Assembly: GCA_050699435.1 (NCBI GenBank)
Contig: JBOHGM010000007.1
Span: forward strand, 3,928 to 67,927
Length of the DNA: 64,000 bases
Direction: 5' to 3'
DNA from: Pseudonocardiaceae bacterium
Lineage (GTDB): Bacteria; Actinomycetota; Actinomycetes; Mycobacteriales; Pseudonocardiaceae
Shown: positions 9,154 through 16,781 of the stretch, in pieces
Position numbering within the stretch: position 1 is the first letter of the stretch
Layout of the letters: each line of letters starts with the position of its first letter
The notes under the pieces: generated by a model
What the model saw: the letters and a program-made list of their open reading frames with translations, nothing else
Told to the model about the DNA's origin: nothing
The model's database searches: none
Program-made: the position numbers and the translations under genes

Positions 9154-10110
9154 GTGAACCGACGGGCCAACGTGAACCGATTAGGACGCGCCGCCGCTGG
9201 CGTTGCCGTACTCGGTGCCGCCGGGATGGGGTACGCCGCAGGCGTCGAACGCCGCCGCTGGACACTGCGCCAGGCCACCCTGCCGGTGCTGCCAGCGGGC
9301 GCGCCGCCGCTGCGCATCCTGCACATCTCAGACCTGCACATGACACCCGGCCAGCTCGCCAAGCAGCGCTGGCTGGCGACCCTGGCCGACCTGCAGCCCG
9401 ACCTGGTGGTGAACACCGGAGACAACCTGGCGCATCTGCGGGCCGTGCCTGCCGTGCTGGGTGCCCTCGCACCGCTTTTGGCCCTGCCCGGGGTGTTCGT
9501 CTTCGGTAGTAACGACTACTACGCGCCGAAGCCGAAGAACCCGGCTCGTTACCTGACCCGCACCCGCGGCAAGTACGTCCGCGGCGCACCGCTGCCGTGG
9601 CGGGACCTGCGGGCCGGGCTCGTCGAGCACGGCTGGCTCGACCTGACGCACTCCCGCCGCGAGCTACAGATCGCCGGACGGCGGGTGGTCGCCGCCGGGG
9701 TGGACGATCCGCACCTGCGGCGGGATCGCTACGACCGGATCGCCGGACGGGCCCATCCCGCCGCCGACCTCCGGCTCGGCCTGACGCACTCCCCGGAACC
9801 GCGGGTGCTCGACTCCTTCGCCGCCGACGGCTACGACCTCGTGCTGGCCGGTCATACCCACGGCGGCCAACTGCGGCTACCCGGATACGGCGCGATCGTG
9901 ACCAACTGCGGGCTGGACCGCTCGCGGGCGCGGGGCGCGTCCCGGTGGGGCGCGTATACCTGGCTGCACGTCTCGGCGGGCCTCGGCACATCCCCCTATG
10001 CGCCGGTACGTTTCGCCTGCCCGCCGGAGGCGAGCCTGCTCACGCTGGTGCCACGGGGCAGCGACACCGGCGTACCGGCCAGTGCCTGGACGGCCGCCGG
10101 CGTCGGCTAG
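9154..10110 (+). CDS. metallophosphoesterase (Rv3683-like)
   Basis: Calcineurin-like motifs: [21 protein letters not shown]. It follows the ponA-like gene, as in mycobacterial synteny. Confidence 0.85.
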
Positions 10111-10124
10111 ACTTCTCGAGGTCG

Positions 10125-11053
<929 letters not shown>

Positions 11054-12139
11054 CTTGGTGTCATAGGGTGAGTGCACCACCAAGAATGATACCCTATCGA
11101 CCGTCCAGTCATAAGAAGAATGGAGACGCCGCCCGTGCGTGATGCGGAGATTCTTGCCGAAGAGCGAGAAATCATCTCTCGGGAGCTTGCCGCCGGCCGT
11201 TCGCGCCGGTCGATTGGGCGGCTGCTGAACAGACACCACACTGTGGTGTCACGGGAAGTCGCCCGGAATGGCGGCTACTCGGCGTATCGGGCGATCCCCG
11301 CCCAGCGGCAAGCAGACAAAAACCGTGCACGCCCGAAACCCCGATTACTGGAGACGAACACGGCGTTGCACGACGCAGTGAACGCCGGCTTGAAACAGAA
11401 ATGATCACCCATCAGCGAGCGGTTGCCCCGGGACTTCCCACAGACCACACTATGCGAGTGTCTCACGAAACGATTTACGAGTGCCTGTACCTGCAGGCAC
11501 GTGGCGAGTTACGCACCCAGCTCACACTCGCCCTACGACAAGGCCGCACACGTCGAGTCAGCCGGTCCCGGACGACCGTGGCCAGGAGAAAGATCCCCAA
11601 CATGATCAACATCAGCGAGCGCCCCGTCGAGGCCGAGGACCGCGCGGTACCGGGGTTCTGGGAGGGCGATCTCATCATCGGCAAAGGCGGCAAGTCCCAG
11701 ATCTCCACCCTCGTCGAACGCACGAGCCGATACGTCATGCTCGTGAAGATCCCCTACGACCGCACCGCCGACCGCGTCGCCACGCTCCTGGCCCAAAAAA
11801 TGGAGACCCTTCCCGACTTCCTCCGCAACAGCGTGACCTGGGACCAGGGAAAAGAGATGGCCGAGCACGCAAACTTCACCGTCAAGACCGGCATCGACGT
11901 CTATTTCTGCGATCCACACGCACCCTGGCAACGCGGCAGCAACGAGAACACGAACGGGCTCCTGCGCCAGTATTTCCCCAAAGGGACCGACCTGTCGGGT
12001 TACACGCAGGCCGAACTCGACGCAGTCGCCGATGAACTCAACAACCGTCCACGTGAGACACTCGGCTGGCTGAAGCCAACCGAAGTACTCAATAAACTCC
12101 TGGTCGAGGCTGGTGGTGCACCCACCACTTGACACCAAG
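11054..12139 (+). mobile_element. IS30-family insertion sequence (1086 bp) with about 28-bp imperfect terminal inverted repeats
   Basis: The left end at 11054-11081 is CTTGGTGTCATAGGGTGAGTGCACCACC. The reverse complement of the right end at 12112-12139 is CTTGGTGTCAAGTGGTGGGTGCACCACC. These ends bracket the transposase reading frames. Confidence 0.8.
11120..12132 (+). pseudogene. IS30-family transposase, inactivated (TGA replacing the expected Trp codon at 11402-11404, plus a frameshift near 11440)
   Basis: The N-terminal HTH part reads LAEEREIISRELAAGRSRRSIGRLLNRHHTVVSREVARNGG...LKQK*. The expected KQKWSP motif is read as KQK-TGA-SP. The DDE part is in another frame: MRVSHETIYECLY...GFWEGDLIIGK...VTWDQGKEMAEH...PHAPWQRGSNENTNGLLRQYFPKGTDL. 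Confidence 0.8.
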
Positions 12140-13035
12140 CTCTGCAAACCACCTTGCGTTCTTTCGCGCAGCTCGTCTTCCAGTTCTCTTCGAAGCATGT
12201 TTAGGCGAAAGACGTCTGCATAGCTCCGAACGAAGTACGTGTACGTCACTCTTCTCTTGAGGTTCTGTACCATCGCATTCTTCACATCGGGACTCTTGTC
12301 GCCGAGGAAGTTCGCCGCGATGACCCAGAACTCCGGGCAGGTCATCTCCCAACGAGCAAGGTCGGCGACCGACTTGAAGTCCTTGCGCCTGAGCTCGTCG
12401 TCCCGTCTCCAGATCCCCAGCACCTGCTCCACCAGTGTGCGGAGGGTGGCCTCTACGCCCCGCTCGTGAAGCTCCGTAAGGAATTTCCGCAAACGAGCAT
12501 CTCCGTCCTTGGCATAGTGCTCGTAGTCCGACCAATCGGCGAATTGGTTAGAGCGATAGGCCCAGGCATTTTCCTTCTCAAAGAGGAACCAGCCGCCGAT
12601 ATTCTGTCCCTTCGGCATGTCCTCGGCCGGGTCCAGCGGTGGAAATGGGTCCTTCTTCGGAATGTCAATCGCATGGTGGATCTCGATCGGAAAAGTGCTG
12701 AGCCGCGGGTAGTCGCACTCGTCTGACAACTTCCAAAGGTCGGGAGGATCAGAGATCAGCTCAACCTCTGTCCAGACGCCGTCCTCGTCGATGGTCGCGA
12801 CGACGCGCTCGAGCTCGACAACCGGGCCGGTCTTGCGGGTGACCACGGTGATGATGTGTTTGAGTGTGTCGATTGCTTCGGGGCTCAGCTTCGAACCCGC
12901 ACCCAGCATCGTGGTGGAGAATACCGAGAAATCTTCGTTCTCCAGGGGACCCGGCGTATGATAGCGATAGGTTTCGTCGAAGTCCGGATCGTCCCGCTGA
13001 GGGCCAGGAACAGGTTCTCCTGTGATGCGATTCAC
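12140..13035 (-). CDS. uncharacterised protein, 3'-truncated by the IS30 end (about 298 codons remain)
   Basis: The frame of ORF 11533-13035 is coding-like only down to the IS boundary at 12139/12140. It reads VNRITGEPVPGPQRDDPDFDETYRYHTPGPLENEDF...FLFEKENAWAYRSNQFADWSDYEHYAKDGD...RLNMLRRELEDELRERTQGGLQSL. No family recognised. G+C counted in sampled 60-nt lines is about 48-57%. Confidence 0.55.
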
Positions 13036-13627
13036 CTTTGCTGGGAAACTTCGGCCCTAGCTCCTCTATCAAGCTCTCGATGTGCGCCTGATCGTCTCCG
13101 TCGATATGCACGTGGAATGTACCGAGCTTGCGAAAGTCACCTGGTTGAAGGTGCTGCGACCCGATGCCTGGCACTCGTTCCCGTAGGAGCTTGATCAGCT
13201 CCTCCACGTCGGCTTCGAAGCGCCTGTCCGATAGCCCTATCGCGTGGTGTCGAGCGAGCTTCCGAAGTGGATCCGGCAGCTCAGTCTCGGCTGGCATCGT
13301 AGCGTCCTCAACCAGCACCGGCACGACCAGCGTGCCGTGCTCCAGCGCAGTCGCGATCTCAAGCCGCACCCAGTCTGCGGGATCGTCGATACGGCGTCGG
13401 TGCTGGGAATCCCCCATCGTCGCCCAATGGTCACCGATGAGTGCGACGACGACCTTGGCGGAGGCCACCGCATCCTCGATCCAACTCGGAAAATCGGCGC
13501 CACCGGGAATGGTGTAGATGTCCCGAAAGACCTTGTCCTTGCCGAAGATGTTGGTAAGCCGGTCGTACAACCGCCCTGCGACGTCCTTCGTTTCGTCGCG
13601 CCGGTAGCTAATGAAGATACTGCTCAT
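12761..13627 (-). CDS. TIR-domain protein (TIR_2-like); the last 90 or so codons overlap the next ORF out of frame and look non-native
   Basis: The ATG at 13627 is preceded by GGGGGG. The product reads MSSIFISYRRDETKDVAGRLYDRL...KVFRDIYTIPGGADFPSWIEDAVASAKVVVALIGDHW...DWVRLEIATALEHGTLVVPVLVEDATMP, a bacterial TIR pattern that includes the W-x3-E glutamate. After about codon 195 the frame becomes Arg/His-rich junk while running over ORF 11533-13035. Confidence 0.72.
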   Translation of the reverse strand: MSSIFISYRRDETKDVAGRLYDRLTNIFGKDKVFRDIYTIPGGADFPSWIEDAVASAKVVVALIGDHWATMGDSQHRRRIDDPADWVRLEIATALEHGTLVVPVLVEDATMPAETELPDPLRKLARHHAIGLSDRRFEADVEELIKLLRERVPGIGSQHLQPGDFRKLGTFHVHIDGDDQAHIESLIEELGPKFPSKGESHHRRTCSWPSAGRSGLRRNLSLSYAGSPGERRFLGILHHDAGCGFEAEPRSNRHTQTHHHRGHPQDRPGCRARARRRDHRRGRRLDRG

Positions 13628-13824
13628 TGCTGCCCCCCTGATCCAGTCCCGCCAACCACGAACGCCCGCCAACGCGAACGACAGTGCAGGTCAAGTACAT
13701 CACCATGACGTGGTCTCTGCCATGGCGCGGAGCCACTGACCACGACGACCTGGCCCATCGGGCGGCCAGAGCGAGCGGAGCTGCGCGCCAGGCGACTGGA
13801 CCTGGCACCGCGTGCGGGTGGCCG

Positions 13825-14083
13825 TCAGGTGGTCCAGCGTCGCACGCGCTTCTTCGACGCGCCGCGCAGCGCAGGGTCGTACCTGCGCTGCGCCGCCTCA
13901 CCGCGGGAGCGTTCGAGCCCGTGCAGCAGCCCGAAGGTGAACCCGTTCTCGCCGGAGAGGTGTGCGACGACGCCGAGCTGCCGCAGCGCATCGCGGGTGA
14001 CCACGCTGTCCTGGTGCGGCGCGGGCAGCGCGGTCGACCCGGAAAGCGGCACGAGCGACCAGTCTGGGCAGCTTGCGTTTGGC
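13825..14083 (-). pseudogene. partial duplicate of the 3' end of the CYTH-CHAD gene, with an internal deletion of about 165 bp
   Basis: 13825-14014 aligns base-for-base, with a few mismatches, to 15261-15450. It encodes ...QDSVVTRDALRQLGVVAHLSGENGFTFGLLHGLERSRGEAAQRRYDPALRGASKKRVRRWTT. 14018-14083 aligns to 15617-15682. Confidence 0.85.
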
Positions 14084-14205
14084 ACGCCCTCGGGTATCTG
14101 GACCCGCTTGTGACCGCTGTTACCGGAGTATCGGCAGTATTGACTACTCTGCGGGGTCGTTCGGTTGTGCACTGCTACCCCGTTCAGAGCTACCCTCCGA
14201 TATAT

Positions 14206-14224
14206 TTAGGGAAGCCTGGCCTGA
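14206..14224 (+). promoter_or_regulatory. possible IdeR/DmdR-type iron box upstream of the siderophore-binding protein gene
   Basis: TTAGGGAAGCCTGGCCTGA matches the TTAGGTTAGGCTAACCTAA consensus at 13 of 19 positions by hand alignment. It ends 17 nt before the ATG at 14241. This is a weak match. Confidence 0.3.
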
Positions 14225-14240
14225 CCGCGGAAGGAGTGCA

Positions 14241-15194
14241 ATGCGACAACCCCGTCAGCTGATCGTTGCTGTGATCGCGATGATGGCCCTGATGGTGGGC
14301 GGCTGCGCCGGCTCGGGGGCTGAGCCGGGCGCCGCAGGCGGTGCGCCGAACGGTACCGAGGGCACCACCCGGGTCGTCCAGCACGCTATGGGCAGCACCG
14401 AGATCACCGGTACGCCGCAGCGCGTGGTCGTGCTCGACACCGGGGAGCTCGACTCGGTTATCGCCCTCGGGGTCACTCCGGTCGGGGCGGTCCGCGCCGA
14501 TGCCACCTCTGGGCTGCAGTCCTACCTGGTGGATCGGGTCCGCCAGGTAGAGATGGTCGGCGCCATCAACGAGCCGAACCTGGAGGCGATCGCCGTATTG
14601 CAACCGGACTTGATCCTGTCTAACAAGGTGCGCCATGAGGACATCTACGACCAGCTGAGCGGGATCGCCCCCACGGTGTTCGCCGAATCGGTCGGAGTGG
14701 CCTGGAAGGAGAACTTCCTGCTCGCCGGTGAGGCGCTGGGCAAGCGGGCGGAGGCGGAGCGCATTCTCGCGGACTACGAACAGCAGGCGCAGCAGGTCGG
14801 CCAGCAGTTCGGTGACCCATCCGCGGTACAGGTCAGCATGGTCCGGTTCATGCCGGGCAGCATCCGGCTCTACGGGCAGGGCTCCTTCATCGGGACCATC
14901 CTGGACGACGCTGGCTTCTCCCGCCCCGAGCCCCAGCAGGTCGACAAGACCTTCGTCGAGATCAGCCGGGAGCAGCTTTCCCTGGCCGACGGCGACCTGC
15001 TCTTTTACGCTGCCTATGGGTCAACTGGCAAGACCGAACAGGGCCAGCTCACGGCAGGTCCCCTGTGGCAGAAGCTGGGCGCGGTGTCCGAAAGCCGGGC
15101 ACACCAGGTATCGGACGACCTGTGGTACCTGGGCATTGGCCCGATCGCAGCTGATCTCGTCCTGAACGACCTGAGGGGGTACGCGACCCAGTAG
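14241..15194 (+). CDS. iron-siderophore ABC transporter substrate-binding lipoprotein (FepB/FhuD-like)
   Basis: GGAAGGAG precedes the ATG. The signal peptide has a lipobox (MALMVGGCAG). Periplasmic-binding-protein pattern: VVVLDTGELDSVIALGVTPVG, LQPDLILS. No permease or ATPase gene is adjacent. Confidence 0.85.
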   Translation: MRQPRQLIVAVIAMMALMVGGCAGSGAEPGAAGGAPNGTEGTTRVVQHAMGSTEITGTPQRVVVLDTGELDSVIALGVTPVGAVRADATSGLQSYLVDRVRQVEMVGAINEPNLEAIAVLQPDLILSNKVRHEDIYDQLSGIAPTVFAESVGVAWKENFLLAGEALGKRAEAERILADYEQQAQQVGQQFGDPSAVQVSMVRFMPGSIRLYGQGSFIGTILDDAGFSRPEPQQVDKTFVEISREQLSLADGDLLFYAAYGSTGKTEQGQLTAGPLWQKLGAVSESRAHQVSDDLWYLGIGPIAADLVLNDLRGYATQ

Positions 15195-15224: not shown

Positions 15225-15260
15225 TTGGTGCCGCATGATCAGGCCCGGGGGCCGGCCGGG

Positions 15261-16781
15261 TCAGGTGGTCCAGCGTCGCACGCGCTTCTTCGACGTGGCG
15301 CGCAGCGCAGGGTCGTAGCTGCGCTGCGCCGCCTCACCGCGGGCGCGTTCGAGCCCGTGCAGCAGCCCGAAGGTGAACCCGTTCTCGCCGGAGAGGTGTG
15401 CGACGACGCCGAGCTGACGCAGCGCATCGCGGGCGACCACGCTGTCCTGGTGCTCGCCGAGCACCTCCTGTAGGTGTTCCATCCGCTTGGCGAGCCGCTT
15501 CGCCGGTTTGCCGAGCACCGAGGCGACCGATTCGGCGGCATAGCGTGCCCGCTTGGCCGCCTTGCGTACCTCGTGCAGCAGTTCCTCGCGTTGCCCTTCG
15601 GTGGCGGCCGCGTCGGCGGCGCGGGCAGCGCGGTCGACCCGGGAAGCGGCACGAGCGACCAGTCTGGGCAGCTTGCGTTTGGCGCGCTTGCGGGCTGGCG
15701 TGGTGAGCGGCGGGTCAGTCACGAGTTCGTCGAGGACGTCGAGTAGCCGCCGGTAGCGCTCGTCGTCGAGAGCCTCGATCAGGTGCTGGTGCCCGGTGCG
15801 GTGCCGCGCACCCAGCTCCAGGTCGATGCGTCGCAGCACCGGGCCAAGTGTCAAGTCGCCAGGCTGCTCCTCGGCCAGTCGACGCAGCCGGTCATGCAGC
15901 ACCTCGGCGTCGCGAGGTTCGCCGAGCGCTCCGCCGAGCCAGCGCAGCTCGTCCCGGACGGGATCGGTGCGCTCCCGGTCGAGCAGCGGGCGGTAGGTCG
16001 CCAGCGCGCTGCGCAACCGCCGGGCCGCGACACGCATCTTGTGCACGGCATCGGGCTCGTCGACGCGCGCGCCACGCTCGCGTGCGACCAGCTCTCCGAC
16101 CTGCTCGCGCAGATGCGCAACGGCGACGTCACCGGCATGCGAGCGCAGCGAGAGGTCAGCGTGCCTGTGCTGCCCAGGGACCAGGTCGCCGAGGGTGCGC
16201 TGGAGTTTGGACGCCGACGCGGACCGGGTCAGGCCTGCGGACTCCAGGCTGGCGCTCACTGCCTCCAGCAGCGCCTGGTCGCCGCCGACGAGTTCGACCT
16301 CCACCTCCCGCCATGCGGACACGTCGACCGAACCCTCGCGCAGCCGCTTGGCGTGCACGGTGTCGTCGGCGACAATGGCCAGGTCGTCGCCGACGGGGTC
16401 GAGCAGGCGCTGTTCGCGCCGGATCGTGCGCAGCAGCGCTACCGGGACGAGATCTTCCCCACGGCTCAGCCCGCGTACCTCCTTCGCCAGGGCCTTGGGC
16501 ACCCGGTGCGTGGCGCGCTTCAGCGGCAGCCTGATCTCGGTGCGCTGCTCGCTCCCAGCGGGGAGCTTCAGATGCCAGCCTTGGTCGGCGCCACCGGTTC
16601 GCCGTCGCAACGTGGTGCAGTGGGCGGCTAACCGCACGTCCGGGGTGTCGAAGTAGGTGGCCTCCAAGATGGTCTCGGCCGGATCTGTGACCGTGGCGAC
16701 ACCCTCGATGCTGGATAAGTCGGGGAGCGGGGTAGCAGCATCAGTGTCGAACTTGCGCTCGATCTCGGACAAGCGGCCCAT
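15261..16781 (-). CDS. CYTH and CHAD domain-containing protein
   Basis: 506 aa. The N-terminus is CYTH-like (EIERKFDTD...LRRRTGGADQGWHLKLP). The C-terminus is helical and His/Arg-rich in the CHAD style (VHKMRVAARRLRSAL, LHEVRKAAKRARYAAE). Confidence 0.85.
   Translation of the reverse strand: MGRLSEIERKFDTDAATPLPDLSSIEGVATVTDPAETILEATYFDTPDVRLAAHCTTLRRRTGGADQGWHLKLPAGSEQRTEIRLPLKRATHRVPKALAKEVRGLSRGEDLVPVALLRTIRREQRLLDPVGDDLAIVADDTVHAKRLREGSVDVSAWREVEVELVGGDQALLEAVSASLESAGLTRSASASKLQRTLGDLVPGQHRHADLSLRSHAGDVAVAHLREQVGELVARERGARVDEPDAVHKMRVAARRLRSALATYRPLLDRERTDPVRDELRWLGGALGEPRDAEVLHDRLRRLAEEQPGDLTLGPVLRRIDLELGARHRTGHQHLIEALDDERYRRLLDVLDELVTDPPLTTPARKRAKRKLPRLVARAASRVDRAARAADAAATEGQREELLHEVRKAAKRARYAAESVASVLGKPAKRLAKRMEHLQEVLGEHQDSVVARDALRQLGVVAHLSGENGFTFGLLHGLERARGEAAQRSYDPALRATSKKRVRRWTT

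Follow-up and report, generated by a model that had tools for sequence, protein, structure and literature searches.

The window analysed here is a 64,000-nt stretch of DNA from a Pseudonocardiaceae bacterium (GenBank assembly GCA_050699435.1, contig JBOHGM010000007.1, positions 3,928 to 67,927 of the forward strand), and coordinates refer to it unless a locus is named. Positions 12140-13627 on its minus strand were shown to be the remnant of one gene for a protein of about 765 amino acids (aa), carrying two lesions, a 1-nt insertion and a deletion associated with an insertion sequence (IS) of the IS30 family. The gene joins an N-terminal TIR domain to a core of three domains, here termed D1, D2 and D3, that other proteins carry behind other N-termini. 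It is best read as a decayed single-chain sensor-effector immune gene lying on a degraded islet beside a tRNA-Pro gene. We infer both the immune function, from the domain grammar, and the sensing mechanism; the explanation as a whole, a broken single gene from a family of constant-module sensor-effectors with immune-type outputs, is given a probability of about 60%.

One gene with two lesions

Two open reading frames (ORFs) were listed and translated on the minus strand, a TIR ORF running from 13627 to 12761 and a partner ORF of 298 codons running from a GTG start at 13035 to 12140. A previous inspection of the letters and ORFs of the window (the sequence-only reading) had described a TIR gene with a separate partner and had proposed either a single TIR-X fusion split by a frameshift near 13035-13045 or two genes with a lost stop codon. 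Its TIR_2-type N-terminus was borne out by Pfam, as the TIR ORF matched the full TIR_2 profile (PF13676, positions 1-122) at 54.3 bits against a cut-off of 28 (E=2.3e-14), giving a SARM1-like TIR domain (aa 4-145) at 13193..13618 (minus). When the Protein Data Bank (PDB) was searched with phmmer, the SARM1 TIR was the best solved relative (E=1.2e-6), and 'DWVRLEIATAL' of the window was aligned with 'DWVHKEIVTAL' of SARM1. The W-x3-E glutamate of NADase TIRs that had been picked out by eye in 'DWVRLE' lies opposite SARM1 'DWVHKE', which we take to be the motif holding catalytic E642; the putative catalytic Glu is kept and the domain is, by this alignment, predicted to be of the NADase type. The partner ORF gave no match in Pfam, PADLOC or NCBIfam, and the library scans found no SIR2, SLOG, Macro, STING, nuclease or NTPase family in it, in agreement with its first description.

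The original frame of the gene is kept in its 5' part (13037..13627, minus, 197 codons), over which the composite protein is recovered at 100% by tblastn (aa 1-197) and which encodes the TIR domain and, after a linker, the opening strand and helix of D1 ('GTFHVHIDG...FPSK'). D1, a tandem ferredoxin/ACT-like domain of about 260 aa, spans the frameshift (12403..13159, minus): its hidden Markov model (HMM) matches both frames, with HMM positions 7-41 matching within the TIR reading frame. The TIR and partner ORFs overlap in different frames by exactly 275 nt (13035-12761+1), and the Arg/His-rich junk that the sequence-only reading had seen there was confirmed on translation. This out-of-frame tail of the TIR ORF (12761..13036, minus, 91 codons), where relatives read the other frame, is by its translation a frameshift artefact, without homology in relatives.

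The site of the frameshift was located by aligning the window with the DNA (L001) of P0005, a TIR protein on a metagenome contig. The partner was matched by only 7 proteins in a collection of 5.8 billion, and P0005 is 94% identical to it where aligned and crosses the junction in one frame ('...EFPSKVNRITGKPVPGPQRDD...'), reading '...FPSKVNRITG...' at the junction itself. The window has AGC-AAA-GGT where L001 has AGC-AAG-GTG-AAT (S-K-V-N), and the lone length difference between them is one extra A in the AAA run at 13037..13039 (minus), within the interval that had been predicted. Deletion of one A gives 495 stop-free codons up to the IS30 junction. Over 266 codons the corrected gene and L001 differ with a ratio of nonsynonymous to synonymous substitution rates (dN/dS) of 0.12, which means that purifying selection acted on the gene until recently. 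A full-length orthologue in one ORF (P0030, 763 aa) is 65% identical to the composite, and further intact one-ORF orthologues were found in a metagenome-assembled genome (MAG) of Pseudonocardiaceae (L014, 63%) and in MAGs of other Actinomycetota (L009, L013), so that relatives at 63-94% identity are a single protein of about 765 aa. Comparison of these sequences makes it almost certain that the TIR ORF and the partner ORF are one broken gene, as the fusion proposal had it; the partner of about 300 aa is not a separate protein, being the first half of a conserved three-domain module of about 610 aa whose last domain has been deleted here.

The other proposal, two separate genes forming a Thoeris-like TIR and effector cassette that overlap or have lost a stop codon, draws on the two ORFs called in both the window and L006 (a separately deposited assembly, described below) and on weak, partial ThsB-type matches of the TIR domain (PADLOC ThsB1 over aa 4-62 only, E=7.8e-7). 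It is refuted by the intact relatives, every one of which is a single ORF; moreover the break does not coincide with a domain boundary but interrupts D1 after the first helix and before the second strand, the frame is regained on removal of a single base, and NCBIfam ThcB4 scores the TIR at 34.9 bits against a cut-off of 220. The downstream ORF that would have to be the separate effector of a Thoeris system is part of the same gene and holds no SLOG, Macro or SIR2 domain in the library scans. We give this proposal next to no credence.

Separately deposited assembly L006 (GCA_975253215.1) matches the window without gaps from 13854 to 11758, its 7 mismatches all lying within the IS. The extra A and the IS junction are therefore both shared with it; as L006 could come from that very strain or from a sister strain, the confirmation is only partly independent. 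L006 bears on a further explanation, in which the extra base reflects an error of sequencing or assembly, or +1 frameshifting is programmed here, and a single N-terminal chain of 495 aa is still produced. The short homopolymer (AAA) at the site, the low dN/dS and an indel in the same codon in L005 would suit this. Against it, the same base count is found in L006, the 94%-identical relative is simply in frame, the L005 change is a deletion (opposite in sign) in what its contig name suggests is a long-read assembly, and the IS30 truncation removes part of D2 and all of D3 regardless; the explanation is very improbable. The L005 change is a 1-nt deletion (9870-9885 of that locus) in the codon that precedes the conserved Lys of 'FPGKFN', no more than about two codons away from the +A insertion of the window, and this proximity may reflect coincidence, a long-read assembly error or a mutational hot spot. 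A conserved programmed frameshift at the 'FP(S/G)K' codon was considered and is unlikely, as the shifts in the window and L005 differ in sign and sequence. Many other copies in the family are also broken: L003 (near 1945) and L004 (near 1647) have one frameshift each, and the copies in L015 and L016 are split. Some of these may be assembly errors, several contig names suggesting long-read MAGs; decay at such a frequency would be in keeping with a gene that is costly or toxic.

The second lesion lies at the IS30-family element at 11054..12139 (plus), which was delimited by 29-nt inverted repeats (86% complementary, 11054-11082 and 12111-12139) and whose transposase matched NF033563 (251 bits, cut-off 80, E=1.6e-74). 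The transposase is split over two frames, with HTH_38 at 11120-11404 and rve at 11401-12132, and the element itself therefore looks defective. The partner frame is stop-free up to the element and runs straight into it, so that the coding sequence is cut exactly at 12139/12140, where the inverted repeat ends; the sequence-only reading had already seen the 3' end of the partner cut by an IS30 end. Relatives P0002, P0007 and P0030 extend about 275 residues past this cut point, and tblastn found no trace of the lost part within the 64-kb window. At the other end, the left inverted repeat adjoins the C-terminal remnant of a large serine recombinase (10493..11053, minus; Pfam Zn_ribbon_recom, E=2.5e-5) in which Pfam found no N-terminal catalytic resolvase domain. 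IS30 insertions produce target-site duplications of 2-3 bp. Here the flanks are GGT and CTC, without a duplication, the transposase is not intact, and both flanking genes are cut without continuation, features at odds with a simple insertion. The missing duplication and the truncation of both neighbours therefore indicate an IS30-associated deletion, which removed the 3' end of the TIR-core gene (its last ~275 codons) and the 5' part of the recombinase gene. What is left of the TIR-core gene is the TIR domain, the split D1 and the first ~87 codons of D2 (12140..12402, minus, 'WEMTCPEFWVIAANFLGD...VTYTYFV...', placed by the alignment termed A1 below); the rest of D2 and all of D3 are gone.

A constant core behind exchangeable N-termini

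The family was defined by a 22-sequence alignment (A1) and a profile search of 1.84 billion cluster representatives, which returned 470 hits at E≤1e-3 and 133 at E≤1e-30. Its constant core, D1-D2-D3, is about 610 aa long and has no model in Pfam (2025), PADLOC (2023) or NCBIfam (2026), scans with these libraries matching N-terminal modules only. A keyword search of papers on conflict systems from the Aravind laboratory and of 2025 preprints on protease effectors and TIR systems found no mention of a constant module of ACT-like or ferredoxin-plus-cyclase type. The family is apparently rare and undescribed.

The N-terminal modules were surveyed by Pfam scans of 49 representatives plus follow-ups. 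TIR_2 was found in 8 representatives, Trypsin_2 in 6 and Trypsin in 3, CHAT in 4, Trans_reg_C (an OmpR-type DNA-binding domain) in 4, Caspase, EAD1 and Lon_C in 2 each, and SIR2_2 and Guanylate_cyc in 1 each; metallophosphoesterase and esterase domains are likewise present among family members. The caspase of P0029 is the NCBIfam 'caspase, EACC1-associated type' (E=1e-50). TIR and D1 also occur in other arrangements, with a TIR plus D1 in P0145 and a D1 with C-terminal TIR in P0161. Intact homologues of the partner are thus fused to TIR in some members, and the core is not specific to TIR, since other members carry SIR2, caspase, CHAT, trypsin, Lon, cyclase, EAD1 or DNA-binding domains.

A scan of the GTDB species representatives with a 5-sequence alignment, in which the genome of the window was not among the matches, gave 10 loci, all of them in MAGs of Actinomycetota or of Candidate Phyla Radiation (CPR) bacteria: four TIR-type, four cyclase-type and two stand-alone D1. 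Five loci from MAGs of Acidimicrobiia and Microthrixaceae, L005 (9078-11581 of the locus), L010, L011, L012 and L016, have a canonical class III cyclase as N-terminal module. The N-terminal cyclase of the L005 type keeps the full catalytic motifs (FTDIAGST, GDG, N..R), and these proteins therefore combine one active-looking with one degenerate cyclase domain, judged from their motifs, an arrangement that recalls the C1/C2 pair of mammalian adenylyl cyclase.

D1 has a set of near-invariant residues (HxHxD, GPQR, Y..HTPG, FST, VExE, ExHH..D, GGWF, YRS and LVEQ..W), all of which are kept in the window. An AlphaFold2 model of a stand-alone homologue (P0084; predicted local distance difference test, pLDDT, 95; predicted template-modelling score, pTM, 0.92) has two βαββαβ units forming one eight-stranded sheet lined with the invariant His, Asp and Glu residues. 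Foldseek comparison of the model with the PDB gave no convincing solved relative (best E=1.6e-3, listed TM-scores ≤0.39). Many of the weak hits were tandem ACT-like ligand binders (GcvR 1u8s, SerB, YkoF and the regulatory subunit of aspartate kinase), which share the two βαββαβ units, and the remaining weak hits include barrels of the ABM or chlorite-dismutase type. The likeness to ACT domains goes no further, as the matches are weak, there is no sequence similarity, and the conserved His/Asp/Glu constellation is absent from ACT domains. Searched against PDB sequences the D1 profile gave a chance match only (E=0.17), and an internal duplication could not be detected at the sequence level (hhalign probability 3.9% for N-half against C-half). 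Two further folds were considered and rejected: for a 2H phosphoesterase, to which 'HxHID' and 'HHSID' on strands might belong, no 2H phosphoesterase, LigT or CPDase was among the top 50 PDB hits, and the CYTH/triphosphate-tunnel fold was absent from the Foldseek hits.

The sole strong structural match of D1 was found in BFVD, an uncharacterised region of a 602-aa protein of Tupanvirus soda lake named 'Adenylate kinase' (A0A6N1NX88; Foldseek E=3e-14, query TM-score, TMq, 0.72, 23% identity over 282 columns). By this comparison of models, giant viruses may have the D1 fold as well, joined there to a nucleotide kinase.

Stand-alone D1 proteins (~260 aa) are the most numerous matches of the family, and none has a Pfam domain or a name beyond 'hypothetical protein'. 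Of the four stand-alone contexts examined, two lie in or beside operons for polar amino-acid ABC transport (HTH_3-SBP_bac_3, SBP_bac_3, permease, ATPase). D1 genes with ABC-transporter neighbours were noted in L019 (6001-10348), in L021 (5222-11806) and on the contig of P0104 (SBP_bac_3, BPD_transp_1, ABC_tran). D1 is also fused to SBP_bac_3 (P0090, P0093, P0106, P0114), to an ABC ATPase (P0110) and to TrmB (P0122); a candidate D1 on the extended ABC ATPase of L021 was checked and none is there. Fusion to, or location beside, genes for ABC transporters and transcription factors is shared with ACT and NIL domains. Taken together, the ACT-like fold of the model and the links to ABC transporters point to a ligand-binding regulatory role for D1, which would be a regulatory domain of that kind.

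D2 is an α/β domain of about 150 aa with the motif 'WE...FWV.A.NFLGD...Y.YF'; the idea that it is a TIR-like domain was dropped at an hhalign probability of 0.3% against the TIR profile. D3, of about 175 aa, matched the Ma1120 cyclase of M. avium in a profile search (E=5e-8), and Foldseek returned Ma1120, Rv1900c, CyaC and others (5d0h, 1ybt, 1wc1; E=2e-5 to 1e-3). Its catalytic residues were scored over 66 aligned members, the window copy having no D3. The first metal-binding Asp is Asp in 37/66; the second is Asn in 30/66, including P0030 and P0002 of the lineage of the window, and Asp in 19/66; the transition-state Asn is found in none (0/66), and the Arg is kept in 15/66. D3 is thus related to class III cyclases (Ma1120; Rv1900c/LipJ) in profile and fold, and differs from them (PF00211) in scoring below the Pfam Guanylate_cyc threshold and in lacking the full catalytic set. 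By these residues it is most likely a degenerate class III cyclase-homology domain, or pseudo-cyclase.

Sensing, output and the weighing of readings

We propose that D1-D2-D3 is the constant module of a sensor or switch. D1 would bind a small cue, which could be a metabolite, a nucleotide or a metal complex, and the pseudo-cyclase D3 would drive dimerisation or higher-order assembly, bringing the N-terminal output domains together so that they are activated by proximity. Class III cyclase domains work as dimers, and TIR NADases, both SARM1 and bacterial TIRs, require self-association. In the TIR version the output would be cleavage of NAD+, leading to growth arrest or abortive infection. It appears likely that the family members are modular proteins pairing a sensor with outputs that are mostly of conflict type, while the specific activation steps (the D1 cue, D3 assembly and TIR firing) are a speculative scheme that is unlikely to hold in every part. 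The copy in the window has no D3 and cannot give the full-length protein, so that it is non-functional as a switch of this kind.

Contextual evidence for a conflict-type role comes from L021 (5222-8622 of the locus), where a gene joining EAD1 to the core (761 aa) shares its 3' end with an overlapping gene of EAD1 and Trypsin_2 (378 aa), with a second trypsin gene upstream on the opposite strand and an operon for polar amino-acid ABC transport following the pair. In conflict systems the same EAD is carried by a core component and by the adjacent effector (Kaur et al., PMC7159879), and the L021 genes are a textbook EAD adaptor pair on an otherwise undescribed core. The N-terminal repertoire also matches that of VMAP proteins, whose N-termini include trypsin, caspase, cyclic nucleotide monophosphate (cNMP) cyclase, TIR and EADs (PMC7159879), and more widely that of Avs/STAND NTPases and of VMAP, iSTAND and TERNS3 in the MoxR-vWA ternary systems (Kaur et al. 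2020, 2021; PMC7159879, PMC8195603), STAND proteins further sharing the DNA-binding output of some members. P0030 has TIR-TPR, TPR-S and SLATT proteins as neighbours. The core is distinct from these systems in its domains: Pfam found no P-loop NTPase (NACHT/NB-ARC) in it, as Avs/STAND proteins would have, and no VMAP-C, VMAP-M or STAND domain in the 60+ members scanned, and MoxR/vWA genes were absent from the Pfam-annotated neighbourhoods of L005, L007/L008, L021 and the P0012 contig and from selected neighbouring ORFs scanned at L014 and in the window. With SARM1-type and bacterial TIR NAD+ hydrolases the window protein shares a TIR above the TIR_2 threshold and a Glu aligned with that of the SARM1 catalytic site; it differs in the fused D1-D2-D3, a module of no characterised TIR protein, and the TIR partners SAM/ARM, SAVED, CARF, STING and TPR are all missing from the TIR protein of this family.

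Several observations weigh against an immune sensor-effector, and we set them out together. The invariant His/Asp/Glu cluster of D1 looks to suit a metal-dependent active site at least as well as a ligand pocket, D2 is without an assigned fold, and the two metal-binding Asp residues are both kept in 19/66 D3 domains, leaving catalysis possible across the family. Several contexts are not defence islands: L014 adjoins an ANTAR regulator and Liv-type ABC genes, an ATP-grasp gene accompanies the family gene in conserved synteny in L005, L010, L011 and L012, and L017 and L020 have their stand-alone D1 genes in housekeeping surroundings and not in or beside transporter operons. The number of loci inspected for context, about 20, is counted on the same side. 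The DNA-binding or cyclase N-termini of some members fit ordinary signal transduction equally well.

Some of these points belong to a different explanation, in which the family carries out ordinary metabolite-responsive signal transduction as a one-component sensor tied to amino-acid transport, with outputs in transcription (Trans_reg_C), cNMP (cyclase) and NAD-derived signals (TIR), and the window copy is a decayed regulator. It would account well for the stand-alone D1 genes in or beside SBP_bac_3, permease and ABC_tran operons, for the fusion of D1 to SBP_bac_3, HTH_3, TrmB and ABC_tran, for the existence of Trans_reg_C-core proteins, and for the settings of the Acidimicrobiia cyclase-core genes (conserved non-defence synteny) and of L014. 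It would not account for N-termini that are mostly of cell-killing or conflict type (TIR, SIR2, caspase, CHAT, trypsin, Lon, EAD1), for the pairing of EAD1 with EAD1-trypsin, a signature so far described for conflict systems only (PMC7159879), or for the patchy distribution, the low-G+C islet and the frequent broken copies. We hold it to be unlikely, with a chance that is well above trivial.

The retained Asp residues also bear on a fused Pycsar-like or Thoeris-like system, in which the core is the signal generator: infection would prompt D3 (or D1) to synthesise a nucleotide second messenger, with the TIR as effector or co-generator. Besides these residues and the homology of D3 to class III cyclases, the enzyme-like invariant His/Asp/Glu set of D1 and the D1-like fold fused to an 'adenylate kinase' in Tupanvirus lend it some support. 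The transition-state Asn is however absent from 66/66 D3 domains, the second metal-binding Asp is an Asn in the lineage of the window, PADLOC found no PycC or CD-NTase match of the core, Pfam found no cNMP-binding or other receptor domain, and the members with a canonical N-terminal cyclase besides D3 suggest that D3 is not the catalytic cyclase. Pycsar (PycC with a TIR or TM effector) and Thoeris (ThsB with a ThsA-type effector) do resemble the family in placing a TIR with a cyclase-fold or nucleotide-signalling component; they consist of two genes, an active signal generator and a separate receptor-effector, whereas the family has one chain with a degenerate cyclase fold. A core that generates the signal is improbable.

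Under the sensor-effector explanation that we prefer, a further step may be put forward tentatively, at rather less than even odds: D1-D2-D3 would be a previously unrecognised, NTPase-free immune sensor or switch that corresponds in function to the cores of STAND/Avs or VMAP proteins, in which D1 reads a small-molecule or nucleotide sign of infection and the pseudo-cyclase, by driving assembly, fires interchangeable outputs (TIR, SIR2, caspase/CHAT, trypsin, Lon or effectors recruited through EAD1). If so, the D1 fold, found also in the giant-virus protein and in proteins linked to ABC transporters, would define a new ligand-binding or catalytic superfamily. What is new here is a family core without a library model and a D1 without a close solved relative; the TIR, the IS30 and the islet are ordinary. 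The description of the locus as an undescribed, damaged TIR immunity cassette holds as to the damage and the absence from defence libraries, and gives way on the cassette, which is one gene. Single-chain proteins that pair swappable death effectors with a constant sensor, such as Avs, NLR-like proteins and SAVED or CARF fusions, are central to current work on bacterial immunity and on its ties to the immunity of animals and plants. Should the family prove immune it would bring a new sensing principle, for which P0030 (763 aa) and the L014 gene are intact candidates in Actinomycetota, a phylum whose defence repertoire is to our knowledge less explored than others.

The islet and its surroundings

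The gene lies on an islet of low G+C. The dip that had been noticed is real, with 58.8% G+C over the region of the gene (12140-13627) and 59.9% over the islet (10205-13700) against 70.4% and 69.2% in the flanks; the range of 48-57% given for it covered the low half only, as single 60-nt lines run from 48% to 67%. In the G+C profile the left edge of the islet is a tRNA-Pro(CGG) gene (10128..10204, plus; ARAGORN), and an att repeat of its 3' end was not found at the far side of the islet. The recombinase remnant is the former integrase of the islet. The picture is that of a small, decayed, horizontally acquired islet made up of a tRNA, an integrase remnant, an IS and a dead cargo gene, and the locus illustrates cleanly how a gene of this sort, on a degraded islet next to a tRNA gene, decays through homopolymer frameshift and IS-mediated deletion.

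A further ORF at 10125-10526 (minus, 133 aa) overlaps tRNA-Pro on the opposite strand and matches no family; it is probably not a gene, because its C-terminus is the antisense of the tRNA. Between the islet and an ABC substrate-binding gene (14073-15194) lies a decayed partial duplicate of the 3' end of a CYTH/CHAD gene (15261-16781, minus), in which 13824-14094 corresponds to 15260-15453 (194 nt at 97% identity) and 15616-15694 (79 nt at 94%), with the 162 nt between them missing. The duplicate could be what is left of an earlier integration or duplication here.

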